DNA of 10,215 nt from NCBI GenBank assembly GCA_029932645.1, contig JAOZPR010000017.1, positions 4,810 to 15,024 on the forward strand. Reading direction: 5' to 3'. Of the stretch, positions 9 to 10,215 are shown one piece after another. Origin of the DNA: Candidatus Aenigmatarchaeota archaeon. GTDB taxonomy: Archaea > Aenigmatarchaeota > Aenigmatarchaeia > GW2011-AR5 > JAGGXF01. How positions within the stretch are numbered: position 1 is the first letter of the stretch; every line of letters starts with the position of its first letter. The translations under genes were made by a program, and so were the position numbers. The notes below the pieces were generated by a model, which ran no database searches, was not told the origin of the DNA, and saw only the letters and a program-made list of their open reading frames with translations.

Positions 9-135
9 TGCCGGAGGCGAGTTTCGAACTCGCGACCTCTACGTTTCTGCGCTTTTGATTTTGTCATTGCTGCAAGAACAGCTCAAAGCTCATAAAACTT
101 ATGAGCGTAGCGCTCTACCACTGAGCTACTCCGGC
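9..135 (-). tRNA. tRNA-Met(CAT), elongator type, intron at position 37/38, no encoded CCA
   Basis: Reverse complement folds as GCCGGAG-TA-GCTC AGTGGTA GAGC-G-CTACG CTCATA [intron] A CGTAG-AGGTC-GCGAG TTCGAAA CTCGC-CTCCGGC-A. Anticodon CAT is at 103..101. The G1-C72 pair and GCCGG start fit archaeal elongator Met rather than initiator (A1-U72) or Ile2. Confidence 0.95.
45..99 (-). other. 55-nt tRNA intron with relaxed bulge-helix-bulge and an internal box C'/D'-like K-turn
   Basis: Removing 99..45 restores a 7-nt anticodon loop CTCATAA closed by CTACG/CGTAG. The intron ends pair in BHB register (GTTTT-a-TGA with TCAAAAGC), but only 2 of 4 central-helix pairs form. Confidence 0.88.
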
Positions 136-515
136 ATCTGTTCGCTTTTGTTCATCTTTTCGTTTCTTTTGACCTCATAAAAAAGTCTTTTGGCGTCTTC
201 TGCTGTTTTTGCCTCGGCATCGCCAAAAATGTGTGGATGTCGCCTTATCATCTTTTCCTTCAGTTCTTTTAGGGCTTGTTCCAGTGTGAATAAGCCTTCT
301 TCCTCTGCTATCTCTGTTATAAGCAATGTGCTGAATAAGATATCTCCTATCTCTTCCCTGAGATTTTCATTGTCTTCGTTTTCTATGGCCTCTGCGAGTT
401 CCTGTGCCTCATCCAACAAATCTTGTTTTAAACTTTTTATGGTTTGCTCGCGGTCCCATGGACATTCTTTCCTTAGTTTGTGTACGAGTTCTCTGATATC
501 ATTTATATTTGCCAT
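126..515 (-). CDS. mazG: MazG-family nucleoside triphosphate pyrophosphohydrolase (single domain)
   Basis: Contains LRKECPWDREQT, EAQELAEAI, LREEIGDILF and KMIRRHPHIF, which are MazG signatures. The stop codon lies inside the tRNA 5' end. Confidence 0.92.
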   Translation of the reverse strand: MANINDIRELVHKLRKECPWDREQTIKSLKQDLLDEAQELAEAIENEDNENLREEIGDILFSTLLITEIAEEEGLFTLEQALKELKEKMIRRHPHIFGDAEAKTAEDAKRLFYEVKRNEKMNKSEQMPE

Positions 516-532
516 GATAACACATCTTTTGG

Positions 533-1480
533 CTATCTAATCAAGCCGAACTGTGCCAGGAGAGCTTCTAACTGTATTAATTCGTTGCTGCCCTCGGTCA
601 GCCTGAATTCATATTCCCCTGTTTTGGCGACTAGCTCCATCTTCTTTTTGTCTGATATTTGCAAAGAGAATATCTCCTTATGAATCTGCTTTATGACGTC
701 TTCGCCTGAAAGGCCCTGCTCAAACAATATGGAAATCAGGATTTTTCTGGCCTGCGTGAATTTGCCCTTCAGCGCAAGATTTAGCATCGCCGTGATTTGC
801 TTTGGTTCTGCCTTGCCAGCAGTTTCGAGTATGATTTTTGATGTTACCTTTTTGCTTGAGATGGCTGCTGTTTGTAGAATATTAACAGCCTTTCTCATAT
901 CACCTTCGCTGAGCTCGAACACCATACCAAGTGATTTCGAATCTATGGTCAGCTTTTCTGCCTTTTGAATCCTTTTCAAATAGTCTGTGGCTTCGTCTTT
1001 CGTGAGCCGGGAGAAGCGAAAGACAGCACACCTGCTCTGGATTGGCAGTATGATTTTAGAAGAGTAGTTAGCAGCAAGTATAAACCGGCATATGCCAGCA
1101 AAGTTCTCCATTGTTCTTCTCAGCGCCTGCTGCGCATCTCTGGTGAGAGCATCTGCTTCATCAAGATATATTATCTTAAAAGAGTCCCCTATGGCTCTGG
1201 TCCTTGCAAAGTCCTTGACTTTTGTCCTTATGGTATCTATTCCACGCTCGTCAGATGCATTCAGCTCGAGAAAGTTTGAGTGCCAATGCTCTCCAAAAAA
1301 TGCCCTGGCTATGCAGAGTGCTGCGGTAGTCTTGCCTGTTCCGGCCGGTCCTGCAAAAAGGCAGTGCGGCAGTGAGCGCTTTTTAACAAAGGATTCAAGC
1401 CTGTTCACGATTTCTTTTTGCCCAGCCATTTCTTCGAGCTTTTTCGGCCTGTATTTCTCGGTCCATATCTCTTCAAACAT
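533..1480 (-). CDS. rfcS: Replication factor C small subunit (clamp loader), intein-free
   Basis: Contains WTEKYRP, Walker A GPAGTGKTT, ELNASDERGID, Walker B LDEAD, QQALRRTME and the SRC motif; 315 aa. Confidence 0.97.
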   Translation of the reverse strand: MFEEIWTEKYRPKKLEEMAGQKEIVNRLESFVKKRSLPHCLFAGPAGTGKTTAALCIARAFFGEHWHSNFLELNASDERGIDTIRTKVKDFARTRAIGDSFKIIYLDEADALTRDAQQALRRTMENFAGICRFILAANYSSKIILPIQSRCAVFRFSRLTKDEATDYLKRIQKAEKLTIDSKSLGMVFELSEGDMRKAVNILQTAAISSKKVTSKIILETAGKAEPKQITAMLNLALKGKFTQARKILISILFEQGLSGEDVIKQIHKEIFSLQISDKKKMELVAKTGEYEFRLTEGSNELIQLEALLAQFGLIR

Positions 1481-7090: not shown

Positions 7091-7105
7091 TATTGATGAG
7101 TGACT

Positions 7106-7552
7106 ATGCAATGTCCCTACTGTTCTAGTAATGACACGAAGGTTATTGATAGCAGGGAGACTGACGGCTCTACGCGGCGGCGGCGCGAATGCTTGAAGTG
7201 CGGCAACCGTTTTACCACATATGAGCGAGTAGAGGACATCCAGTTCATGGTGATAAAAAAGGACGGTCGGCGGGAACAGTTCAACAGGGAGAAAATCAAG
7301 ACAGGTATAACCAAAGCGTGCGAAAAAAGGCCTATCAGTATGGAGAAAATAGAGCAGGTCGTAGACAAGATAGAGGCTGATCTGCGCCGGATGGGAAAGA
7401 CAGAGATAAAGAGCAGGGTTATTGGTAAGATGGTAGTGCGTGAGCTGAAGCATCTGGACAAGGTCGCGTACATACGTTTTGCTTCTGTCTACCAAGAATT
7501 CGATGATTTGGAATCTTTTGAGAACGAACTTAGGAAGTTAAAGAAGAAATAA
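7106..7552 (+). CDS. nrdR: Transcriptional repressor NrdR (Zn ribbon + ATP cone)
   Basis: Contains MQCPYC...KVIDSR...[35 protein letters not shown] and [16 protein letters not shown] 7106 is preferred over GTG 7100. Confidence 0.97.
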
Positions 7553-7597
7553 AGACGAGGATAAAAATGGCTAAGATGACAAAGAGGAGGGTATAAA

Positions 7598-10215
7598 ATG
7601 ACCATAAGAAAAATAAAGAAAAGGGACGGAAGGATTGTTGATTTTGACCAGGAAAAGATAACCAATGCCATATTCAAGGCTGCCCGTGCAGTTGGTGGCG
7701 AGGACAGAAAGAGAGCAGAATATTTATCAGATGAAGTTGTGAAGATACTTGAGAAGCGCTTTGACGGAAAAAAGGCTGGTGTTGAAGACATACAGGATAT
7801 TGTTGAAAAGGTGCTTATTGAGAACGGCCACGCTAAAACGGCGAAAGCTTACATACTTTACAGGGAGCAGCATAAGGAGTTCAGGGATTTCAAAAAGATG
7901 ATTTCTGAAGTCAGCATGATTGATGCATATCTGGATGAAAAGGATTGGCGTGTTAGGGAAAACAGCAATATGACATATTCCCTTCAAGGAATGAACTTTC
8001 ACATATCTTCTAAGATGGTTTCTAGCTATTGGCTACAAAAGATATATCCGCCGGAAATCAGAAGGGCACACACAAGCGGCGATTTCCATATACATGATCT
8101 TGGAATTTTTGGTGCTTACTGCGTTGGCTGGGACTTAAAAGACCTTCTCATATCTGGCTTTGGCGGTGTCCCTGGAAAAGTTGAGAGCAAGTCAGCAAAG
8201 CATTTTCGCGTTGCTCTTGGTCAGATAATAAACTTTTTTTACACGTTACAAGGAGAGGCTGCTGGTGCCCAAGCTTTTAGCAACTTTGACTCGCTTTTGG
8301 CGCCGTTCATAAGATATGATAAGCTTGATTATAAACAGGTCAAGCAGGCGATGCAGGAGTTTCTATTTAATATTAATGTGCCGACAAGGGTGGGATTTCA
8401 GTGTGTGTCGGAAGATACTGAAATATTAACTCCAGACGGCTGGAAAGGGTATGATGAGGTAAAGAAGGGAGACCTTATTAAGACATTTAATATAAAAACT
8501 GGGGAGATAGAAAACCAACGAGTTAAGAGGCTGTTTAAAAGACATTATAAAGGAGTTATGTATAACCTGAAGAACCGTATTCAAGACCAGTTAATATCAC
8601 CAAAACACAGAGTCGTGAGAAAAAAATTTCAGAGTAACGACTATATATTGGAACCGATTGAAGAAGTTTGTAAATTAAAATCTCCTTTTATTATTCCAAT
8701 CGCCGGAAGGAACAAAAACAAGGACGCGAAAATCAGCGATGAACAAATAAAACTGATGGCATGGATTATAAGCGAGGGAACCATAGAGCGACCCGGAAAA
8801 CACAGGTGCTGCTATAGGGTTAGTATATATCAGTCTAAAGAGAAAAACAAAAAGAACTATGAAGAAATTGTTAAACTGTTGAAACATTTTAAATTAAAAT
8901 ATTATGAGAGCGAATCTGCTTCGCTCGGCAACAAGGTTGCAAGACTTAGACTCAATGCGGAAAGTTCAAGAAAGATTCACAAATGGTTTGGAACCAGGGA
9001 CAGTGTTGGTTTCATCCCTGACATACTGCTGAATATGAGCGAGAGACAGTCCAAATTATTTATCCACACTTACCTCAAGGCAGACGGTTTTGAAAATTGC
9101 AAGATAGCGACAACGAAGCCTGGGATTTTAGATTCTTTGCAGACGATTGCCGTCAATGCTGGATATGGCTTCACGGTTTTGAAAAGAAAGCCGACTATCG
9201 GCAAAAAGGACGTCTATGTTCTGAGATTAATTAAACAGAAAGAGTCCTATATTCAGAAAGTCGAGAAGGTGCGGTATGACGGAATCATATGGTGTCCAAA
9301 TACAAAAAATGAAACCATAATAGCGAGGAGAAGAGGAAAAGTTTTTATAACAGGAAACACTCCTTTCACAAATATTACGCTTGATTTAGGCATGCCCGGC
9401 TACATGAAACAGGAGCCCGTGATAATCGGTGGCAAGCCCATGGATGCTGTGTATGGCGATTTTCAGGAAGAGCTTGACATGCTGAACAGGGCGTTTGCCG
9501 AGGTCATGCTCGATGGCGATGCAAAGGGCAGGGTCTTCACGTTCCCGATACCAACTTATAATATTACAAAGGACTTTGACTGGGGTAACAAAAAATACGA
9601 ACCAATATGGGAGATGACTGCCAAGTATGGCGTGCCATACTTTGCCAACTTCATAAACAGCGACATGAAGCCTGATGATGTTAGGAGTATGTGTCCGCTA
9701 GATGGCGAAGAAAAGGTATTGATAAAATCAAATAGAGGAAGGGGGTTGGAATACTCAAGCATTAGAAACATCTATGAAGGTAATTCTAAGACTGAGGAAT
9801 ATGAAATTTACAGTGATGGAAAATTTGTAAAAGGCAAGTTTAACAAATTCCCAAACCAAAAAATGATTGAAATTGCTCTCGAAAATGGTCATAAAATAAA
9901 AATGTCTAGTGAACATCTCAATTTTGTAATGAGAGGGCCAGACGCGGTGGTAGAAGAATTGAAAGGAGAGCAATTGGAAGAAGGTATGTATCTTCCCTAT
10001 TCTCTTAATATGTACGAAGGAAACGGTGGAAATGCTGACTTAGGATATTTTGTAGGTGCTTATGCGGGTGATGGATCATTAGATAGAGAAACAACAGTTG
10101 TGTTTTCTTTAGGAGACGGAGAAAAAAAGACTGTTGCAGAAAAACTAAAACAAATTGCCGAAAAATATTTTGGGGCGCGTTGTACAACAAAGGAGTATGA
10201 CGACACTAAACTCTT
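7598..10215 (+). CDS. nrdD: Anaerobic (class III) ribonucleoside-triphosphate reductase with N-terminal ATP cone and at least two inteins; 3' end beyond the window
   Basis: Translated by hand from ATG 7598 (SD GAGGAGG) with no stop to the window end. ATP cone IKKRDGRIVDFDQEKI...VEDIQDIVEKVL, then DWRVRENSN, GDFHIHDLG, YCVGWDL, EAAGAQAFSNFD, PTRVGFQ|intein|TPFTNITLD, FTFPIPTYN, KYGVPYFANF and DDVRSMC. Confidence 0.96.
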   Translation, partial: MTIRKIKKRDGRIVDFDQEKITNAIFKAARAVGGEDRKRAEYLSDEVVKILEKRFDGKKAGVEDIQDIVEKVLIENGHAKTAKAYILYREQHKEFRDFKKMISEVSMIDAYLDEKDWRVRENSNMTYSLQGMNFHISSKMVSSYWLQKIYPPEIRRAHTSGDFHIHDLGIFGAYCVGWDLKDLLISGFGGVPGKVESKSAKHFRVALGQIINFFYTLQGEAAGAQAFSNFDSLLAPFIRYDKLDYKQVKQAMQEFLFNINVPTRVGFQCVSEDTEILTPDGWKGYDEVKKGDLIKTFNIKTGEIENQRVKRLFKRHYKGVMYNLKNRIQDQLISPKHRVVRKKFQSNDYILEPIEEVCKLKSPFIIPIAGRNKNKDAKISDEQIKLMAWIISEGTIERPGKHRCCYRVSIYQSKEKNKKNYEEIVKLLKHFKLKYYESESASLGNKVARLRLNAESSRKIHKWFGTRDSVGFIPDILLNMSERQSKLFIHTYLKADGFENCKIATTKPGILDSLQTIAVNAGYGFTVLKRKPTIGKKDVYVLRLIKQKESYIQKVEKVRYDGIIWCPNTKNETIIARRRGKVFITGNTPFTNITLDLGMPGYMKQEPVIIGGKPMDAVYGDFQEELDMLNRAFAEVMLDGDAKGRVFTFPIPTYNITKDFDWGNKKYEPIWEMTAKYGVPYFANFINSDMKPDDVRSMCPLDGEEKVLIKSNRGRGLEYSSIRNIYEGNSKTEEYEIYSDGKFVKGKFNKFPNQKMIEIALENGHKIKMSSEHLNFVMRGPDAVVEELKGEQLEEGMYLPYSLNMYEGNGGNADLGYFVGAYAGDGSLDRETTVVFSLGDGEKKTVAEKLKQIAEKYFGARCTTKEYDDTKL
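8402..9358 (+). mobile_element. Intein 1 in NrdD (319 aa) with LAGLIDADG homing-endonuclease domain
   Basis: Starts CVSEDTEILTPDGW; block B ISPKHRV; LAGLIDADG-like LMAWIISEG and FIHTYLKADG; block F YDGIIWCP; ends FITGN with +1 Thr. The exteins rejoin as RVGFQ-TPFTN. Confidence 0.93.
9692..10215 (+). mobile_element. Intein 2 in NrdD (partial) with LAGLIDADG domain; first residue is Cys (9692) or Pro (9695)
   Basis: NrdD similarity breaks at DVRSM-C, where SMCCRL is expected. It is followed by PLDGEEKVLI (block A-like), ENGHKIKMSSEH (block B) and LGYFVGAYAGDGS (block C, about 10040-10078). The DNA is visibly more AT-rich than the extein. Confidence 0.9.

Follow-up and report, generated by a model that had tools for sequence, protein, structure and literature searches.

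The locus raises the question of whether an archaeal tRNA intron can guide the modification of the very tRNA from which it is cut. The window, that is, the whole stretch of 10,215 nucleotides analysed, carries on its minus strand (135..9) a tRNA identified by Rfam RF00005 (E 2.5e-11 in a search of the window). ARAGORN with introns switched on calls it tRNA-Met(cat) with a 55-nt intron, and a tRNA search of the window without introns called none. We read it as the elongator tRNA-Met(CAU), because the three G–C anticodon-stem pairs of initiators are absent and the N. equitans orthologue is annotated as such. On the minus strand, positions 1–37 form the 5′ exon (100..135; RF00005, ARAGORN -i, and the sequence itself), the intron (45..99; ARAGORN with introns, sequence) lies at the canonical 37/38 site, and positions 38–73 form the 3′ exon (9..44; Rfam, ARAGORN).

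Next to the tRNA, the RFC small subunit (533..1480) is followed downstream by a MazG-family frame (126..515, minus strand) that ends at 128..126 and overlaps the 5′ end of the tRNA by ten bases; the tRNA may therefore be cut from mRNA. Elsewhere in the window (7100..10215, plus strand), an NrdR-like gene precedes one for the anaerobic ribonucleotide reductase NrdD, in which the match is broken; NrdD residues 734–858 give a weak intein-splicing match, below the cut-off, and ahead of them, near residue 272, an insertion resembles an intein by eye.

The initial annotation had described in this intron an antisense element flanked by C/D-like boxes, and re-reading of the minus strand found its positions for guide, boxes, stem, bulge, and CAGA to be correct. 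The guide UUAUGAGC (95..88) is, as had been claimed, the exact complement of GCUCAUAA (106..99), comprising G31 (106), C32, U33, C34 (103), A35, U36, A37 (100), and A99; this eighth target base is intron position +1, however, and does not belong to the exon. G91, the fifth base upstream of box D, indeed lies opposite C34. A lone spacer base (U87), unpaired with position 30, separates the guide from the box D/D′ UUGA (83..86). The box is followed by a canonical K-turn stem (69..82) of GCUG (82..79) and CAGC (72..69) with a 6-nt loop and a possible fifth U–G pair, and then by the 3-nt bulge AAU (68..66) and the box C/C′ AUGACAA (67..61). The bulge shares two letters with the start of box C, which is normal for such a K-turn. 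All these elements lie on the minus strand, and the module reads, in order, exon 31–37, five bases, guide, one base, UUGA, 4-bp stem-loop, AAU, (AU)GACAA, and splice strand. The last is the 3′ strand of a relaxed bulge–helix–bulge splice motif (45..55, minus strand; sequence, scored structure), where only C32–G47 and U33–A48 pair in the central helix, and the outer helix joins 98..94 with 51..55. Among 139 introns of this type (see below), the two-pair central helix occurs in seven, and all four pairs in 54.

Two further candidates within the intron were rejected. The CAGA at 49..46, suggested earlier as a second D-like box, occupies intron positions −5 to −2 in the splice strand facing positions 32–35 and shows no D-box conservation, which rules it out as such. 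Similarly, a hidden bipartite sRNA is ruled out, as the intron has one D…C pair only, an Rfam C/D family search of the window gave no match, and the intron was not among the results of a genome-wide scan for the four-box pattern.

How far could chance account for the complementarity? An 8-mer complement arises in 30 out of 20,000 dinucleotide shuffles of this intron alone, a rate that gives some room to the idea that the complementarity is accidental or a structural by-product (e.g., a copy of the splice strand UGAG) and the boxes incidental; introns of this kind have a splice strand that can itself pair with 32–35, and the AUGA of the guide resembles box C. A 7-nt guide with NNGA in register and a downstream RUGA appears in none of the 20,000 shuffles (six for a 6-nt guide, 38 for a 5-nt guide). 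The folding z-score of the whole segment is only −0.85, and therefore stability alone would not flag the element. Judged at the level of sequence, it is conservation in relatives, beyond single-intron shuffles, that settles the module as real.

For a guide-blind sample, an exon-only pattern was applied to 151 genomes of the window's phylum, of which 79 matched. Chance matches and matches running into other tRNAs were dropped, leaving 65 elongator-type and 17 initiator introns; a long elongator intron (G102), whose displayed start shows the guide, was left out of the 65. The full strict module is present in 57 of the 65 elongator introns, compared to 0.39 expected from shuffles. The guide pairs with positions 32–35 in 64 introns, NNGA follows it in 62, and RUGA lies downstream of D in 62; part of the module is missing in eight introns, and in three the third position of D is not G. 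Exon position 31 and the guide base facing it change in concert (G–C in 37 introns, A–U in 21, U–A in six, a mismatch in one), and both tRNAs with G37 have C opposite in the guide. More than one state of position 31 occurs inside each of the families f2, f16, f21, and f22; therefore the switch at this position happened several times, though kin are not independent, here or in any of the counts. In family f21 (L157–L159, L161–L163), U31 stands opposite U39 in the elongator tRNA-Met, and the guide has switched to the matching A. U31 opposite U39 is a trait of eukaryotic elongator tRNA-Met.

The module was found in none of the 17 initiator tRNA introns of the same phylum sample. These serve as a control for chance only, given that Cm34 is reported on initiator tRNA of two euryarchaea in the available text of Wolff (2020). 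By the same strict rule, the module is present in 8/8 introns of Nanobdellota, 13/14 of Hadarchaeota, 18/19 of Micrarchaeota (leaving out one row that is another tRNA), and 0/50 Met introns of Thermoplasmatota; four genomes of these samples came via a motif scan, not as blind draws, and beyond the window's phylum this sampling covered these four phyla. Taken together, the comparative counts confirm the module of the tRNA-Met intron as a real conserved feature and not a chance one, and the alignment with related introns bears out the initial annotation, since the guide, the D box, box C, the 3-nt-bulge register, and the +5 position on C34 are conserved and change together with the exon. A by-product would explain neither this frequency nor the three-state covariation at position 31, untouched by the splice motif. 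It would explain neither the lack of the module in initiator and Thermoplasmatota introns, which also need a splice motif, nor the retargeting of guides in paralogues. Unless the introns were parsed wrongly in a systematic way, the comparative counts refute this explanation, which we consider extremely improbable.

Across all GTDB species, the motif scan yielded at least 119 stretches. Among the matches listed, 91 have a module-type intron, three from Poseidoniales are partial, without the full module, and 25 were dropped as chance matches beside other, mostly bacterial, tRNAs. Records labelled Methanosarcinales were rejected as evidence of spread outside DPANN, as the single record tested belongs to the phylum sample that includes N. 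equitans. Three observations concern introns that depart from the common pattern. One clade of Thermoplasmatota (L261–L271) has a semi-conserved stretch UGAGCGC / UGACGUGC in Met introns without the full module, which might represent either what is left of the module or the place where a separate guide pairs. Elongator-type Met introns of L290 (Hadarchaeota) and L324 (Micrarchaeota) lack the module, though it is the rule in both phyla, and are candidates for trans-guide replacement or loss of Cm34. Many relatives (L002, L003, L013, L016, L018, L194, L195) have a second tRNA-Met intron, in the D-loop or the anticodon stem, which must be removed as well.

The geometry of the module was analysed in a pool of 139 distinct introns (65 blind and 74 motif-selected). 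In 86 of them the interval from D to the first RUGA is long enough for a stem, and in the 3-nt-bulge register the first two pairs form in 83 of the 86, compared to 3–14 when slid by one or two bases; C–G, G–C, A–U, and U–A are all used, with several pair types at each stem position. The D-to-C distance is mostly 3–27 nt, the short members (3–8 nt) being K-loop-like. The pair beyond the sheared pairs is U–A in 52, C–G in 18, A·G in 18, and A–U in 17 introns (n = 138); the A–U pair which the initial annotation had placed there, counted here as U–A (52 of 138), is thus the commonest one, but no conserved pair. The spacer base is unpaired with position 30 in 109 of the 139 introns, as expected if, in line with C/D RNP structures, Nop5 displaces it. 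The role of helix 9′ is treated in the available text of Yang (2020; PMC7229835).

These data allow us to place the element relative to known guide classes. The intron has box D (NUGA) and box C (RUGA) in the K-turn register with the 3-nt bulge, an antisense ending one base before D, a target at +5, and compensatory changes, all characteristic of box C/D guides. It differs from the canonical bipartite class, with its terminal C/D and internal C′/D′ motifs and a guide–target helix of 9–12 bp, as it has a single D…C pair and 8 bp. In the pool, the usable guide–target pairing is 4–11 bp (mode 7), and it is at most 7 bp in 70 of the 139 introns; according to the available part of Dennis (2015), at least 9 bp were required for C/D guide–target pairing. 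The tRNA-Met intron thus appears to work like a box C/D guide outside the canonical bipartite family.

The same layout recurs in other tRNAs of this genome. Introns of tRNA-Trp(CCA) (contig C29:1107-1230; guide CUGGAGC) and tRNA-Leu(CAA) (contig C10:23582-23744; guide CUUGAGU) have the Met-type arrangement, each with seven Watson–Crick pairs and +5 on C34. The retargeting of the guides in the Trp and Leu introns implies that AUGAG in the Met guide is not a mere box C look-alike. In relatives, the Trp pattern gave nine matches among 61 genomes, seven of them with the antisense UGGAG by eye; for Leu(CAA), the antisense CUUGAGU was seen, also by eye, in five of 17 matches, the rest being chance matches, cut off, or without it. 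In Pyrococcus, position-34 guides are predicted for four tRNAs, including Leu-CAA, Met, and Trp (Breuer, 2021, available text).

Two more introns of the genome deserve mention. The tRNA-Leu(UAG) intron (contig C28:4040-4215) has a 6-nt antisense to 32–37 and a downstream AUGA, with no good D box in register, and is possibly a decayed module. The anticodon intron of tRNA-Ser(UGA) (contig C10:21676-21939) contains a complete four-box C/D sRNA starting near 21807, with a D′ guide similar to the one in N. equitans sRNA13, for which 16S rRNA 1373 is the predicted target; the search for the corresponding rRNA motif in the assembly, as a test of this target, gave none. As for a separate trans-acting Met guide, the search of the genome for a Met-anticodon guide with NNGA gave 11 matches, including the tRNA-Met intron, and none of the 11 falls within the three four-box candidates.

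The genome (719 kb, 89% complete) belongs to a family whose introns are most similar to those in records named Aenigmatarchaeota. A C/D guide depends on its protein partners, and the genome encodes them, in agreement with the expectation of the initial annotation. L7Ae (a 124-aa frame) and Nop5 (325 aa, residues 52–325 aligning to a solved archaeal Nop5) are open, as are the reading frames of EndA and RtcB. The fibrillarin gene, adjoining Nop5, is split in the assembly by a 1-nt frameshift (contig C27 near 6870; L150, about 1523). Contigs of run X1, the possible source of the assembly, have the same frameshift, contigs of runs X3 and X4 end at this site, and in run X2, from another study (depth 70), an extra base restores the frame, with eight substitutions in 1,301 bases. 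Fibrillarin is open in five out of five relatives and matched in 150 of the 151 genomes of the phylum; we attribute the frameshift either to an error in the assembly or to a strain-level allele. Thus, the three proteins expected of the guide class are encoded, fibrillarin according to run X2 and the relatives. In the same genome (89% complete), no SpoU/TrmL-family gene was found, and FtsJ had no match over the cut-off.

The split fibrillarin gene might be taken to favour another explanation, in which L7Ae binds the antisense and the K-turn as a folding switch, so that splicing is delayed or regulated and no methyl group is added. This is weakened by the intact gene in the 99% identical run and by its near-universal occurrence in the phylum. 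That occurrence makes a co-occurrence test uninformative there; in Nanobdellota (61 genomes, 46 with a fibrillarin match), the module is found in eight genomes, all fibrillarin-bearing, and in none of the 15 without a match, a weak association (p ~0.09) pointing against the switch.

We propose that the intron would act as a natural single-motif (“halfmer”) box C/D guide for its own C34, mainly in cis on the unspliced precursor. Guide-directed formation of Cm34 by any route, cis and trans combined, is highly probable, with roughly double weight on the cis route, which taken by itself is somewhat better than an even prospect. In the first step, exon positions 31–37, whose pairing with the guide is conserved, would pair in the nascent transcript before the 3′ exon is made, yielding a hairpin of 7–8 bp. 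L7Ae would then bind the D/stem-loop/C kink-turn, whose geometry is evident in the intron, as expected from knowledge of the family. Nop5–fibrillarin would load and methylate C34 opposite the +5 base, in the register present in the intron. Finally, the RNA would refold into the anticodon stem and the splice motif, and EndA and RtcB would splice it. The guide helix and the splice motif exclude each other because they share bases, and the proposed order is methylation followed by splicing. As for the product, Cm34 would favour the reading of AUG over AUA, according to the available text of Wolff (2020).

Predicted folds are consistent with the cis hairpin. The C34–G91 pair has a predicted probability of 0.985, 0.94, and 0.67 at 37, 60, and 80 °C, respectively. 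The guide fold reaches −40.6 kcal/mol versus −32.6 kcal/mol for the splice fold, both predicted without proteins and leaving out the contributions of the K-turn, the splice motif, and proteins. The guide helix always takes position 31 from the anticodon stem. The initial annotation had favoured action in trans or as the excised circle because of the 3-nt loop between target and guide. This preference is not upheld, as the cis hairpin dominates the predicted fold and spacers of relatives tend to stabilize it. Without the last pair the hairpin keeps 7 bp and its loop grows to 5 nt, at a cost of 0.2 kcal/mol; the 3-nt loop therefore does not force action in trans. Spacers of at least six bases stabilize the hairpin beyond their own shuffles in 87 out of 100 cases (p ≤ 0.05 in 27, p ≥ 0.95 in none). 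Seven of the eight long spacers (26–74 nt or 20 nt) fold back, three of them leaving 27–32 bases unpaired; the long-spacer rows L182 and L089 are mis-parsed or short.

The mutual exclusion of guide helix and splice motif and the higher stability of the naked guide fold would equally suit the folding switch, as would the fact that box C reaches into the final six bases of the intron in 17 of 138 cases, and a 2026 preprint in which, as far as its available text goes, K-loop RNAs repress excision of their host introns in mammals. At the same time, a brake on splicing needs neither a fixed one-base gap placing C34 at +5 in Met, Trp, and Leu introns, nor a restriction to elongator as opposed to initiator introns. 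Hence, we regard a switch without methylation as improbable.

A closer competitor retains both the halfmer guide and the Cm34 product and has the guide act in trans, as the excised linear or circular intron or as the intron of another precursor. RtcB is encoded in the genome; the orthologous intron of N. equitans occurs as a stable and abundant RNA (coverage 31,500; Randau, 2012; PMC3491384), reviews report action of the Trp intron in trans in vitro, and monopartite guides methylate 8-bp substrates in trans in vitro (Wang and Ye, 2022; PMC9670817), all as given in the available parts of these sources. The pairing next to the splice site gives a mixed picture: in 53 introns with +1 other than A, the guide pairs with +1 in 15, and the base facing 38/+1 is U, which would face A38, in 27, the latter as expected for a spliced target. 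In 14 of the 139 introns, the complementarity runs to loops shorter than 3 nt, unusable in cis. On the other hand, an 8-bp duplex in trans yields only −8.8 kcal/mol and must open G31–C39, and half of the introns (70/139) offer 7 bp or less. In an intact precursor, its own exon is predicted to occupy the guide. The tendency of spacers to fold back, closing the cis hairpin, and the shortest intron (25 nt, L182), which stops pairing at C34, where a cis loop must begin, likewise speak against trans. We therefore consider predominant action in trans unlikely, although clearly less so than the switch. The preferred reading remains self-guided methylation in cis, and on a wider scale we see about an even chance that DPANN and Hadarchaeota share a half-size self-targeting tRNA-intron cassette, with the guide rewritten per anticodon (Met, Trp, Leu-CAA) and cis wobble methylation serving as a pre-splicing checkpoint by competition with the splice motif.

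If true, archaea would have their first natural halfmer guide, selection would have a direct reason to retain these introns, and the idea could be tested with a 127-nt transcript and three standard proteins. It bears on several questions raised in the literature, cited here as far as the sources were available. Whether single-motif C/D guides work in cells was asked by Yang (2020; PMC7229835), and their activity is disputed in vitro: single-motif RNPs were active but non-specific according to Hardin and Batey (2006; PMC1635284), which Yang (2020; PMC7229835) blamed on an over-long duplex, and monopartite K-turn or K-loop guides with L7Ae showed strict specificity on 8–11-bp substrates (Yang, 2020, PMC7229835; Wang and Ye, 2022, PMC9670817). 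The choice between cis and trans for an intronic guide was called open for tRNA-Trp by Grosjean (2008). With respect to intron retention in archaea, reviews cite the Trp intron as the unique one with a modifying function, and the 2024 intron-dependency review states that Haloferax survives without the Trp guide.

The available portions of Breuer (2021), Yoshihisa (2014), the 2024 intron-dependency review, Hori (2014), and Dennis (2015) name Trp as the only intronic guide or name none, and nothing on the tRNA-Met intron was found in those of Rose (2020), Yip (2013), and Su (2013). The literature search, with most subscription papers outside it, found no paper with the self-target or a halfmer family. 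Hence, the principle of an intron guiding its own Cm34 (in Trp) and the N. equitans RNA are already known, while the Met self-target and the halfmer family are apparently new.

The closest described RNA is that of N. equitans, which also answers the question of the initial annotation about an earlier description in DPANN: the 66-nt intron of its elongator tRNA-Met was reported in 2012 as a stable, abundant putative C/D sRNA with “no prediction” of a target (Randau, 2012; PMC3491384, available text). That intron is orthologous and resembles the one in the window (UAUGAGC, one base, CUGA, a stem-loop, AUGAUCU). Unlike our reading, the available text treats it as a single case, with no halfmer description and no target; the orphan RNA would thus gain a target. 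According to the legend, its box C has a T-to-G change at position 30, which by our count corresponds to GGGAUGA (29–35), three bases upstream of the conserved register (32–38).

Similarly, the euryarchaeal pre-tRNA-Trp intron (Haloferax volcanii; Pyrococcus sR50) is described in the available reviews as a nested C/D RNA for its own Cm34, and, like it, the intron in the window has a guide in the 37/38 intron, its own C34 as the target, and the +5 rule. The sR50-type RNA differs in being bipartite, about 100 nt long in Haloferax, having C34 as well as U39 as targets, and being active in trans in vitro. The intron in the window has one motif, one 7–8-nt guide, and one site in tRNA-Met (also in Leu-CAA and a minimal Trp); it lacks a second guide for position 39, the facing base pairing in 48 of 112 introns.

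The free-standing Haloferax sR-tMet and Pyrococcus sR49 share with it the target base and the intron-containing pre-tRNA-Met as the substrate, and are separate genes (Grosjean, 2008; Hori, 2014; available parts), whereas the guide in the window is inside the intron. An intronic Met guide thus contradicts the statement that the guide for Cm34 of tRNA-Met is never intronic, the Trp guide being always intronic and the Met guide “always exonic” (Grosjean, 2008, available part). Finally, while natural guides have two motif sets according to the available text of Wang and Ye (2022; PMC9670817), the engineered MMG4 and MMG5 have, like this family, one C/D set as a K-turn or K-loop and one guide (PMC9670817, PMC7229835, PMC1635284, available parts). 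They are laboratory constructs with 12-nt guides assayed in trans, whereas the module in the window is natural, conserved, shorter, and tethered to its target.
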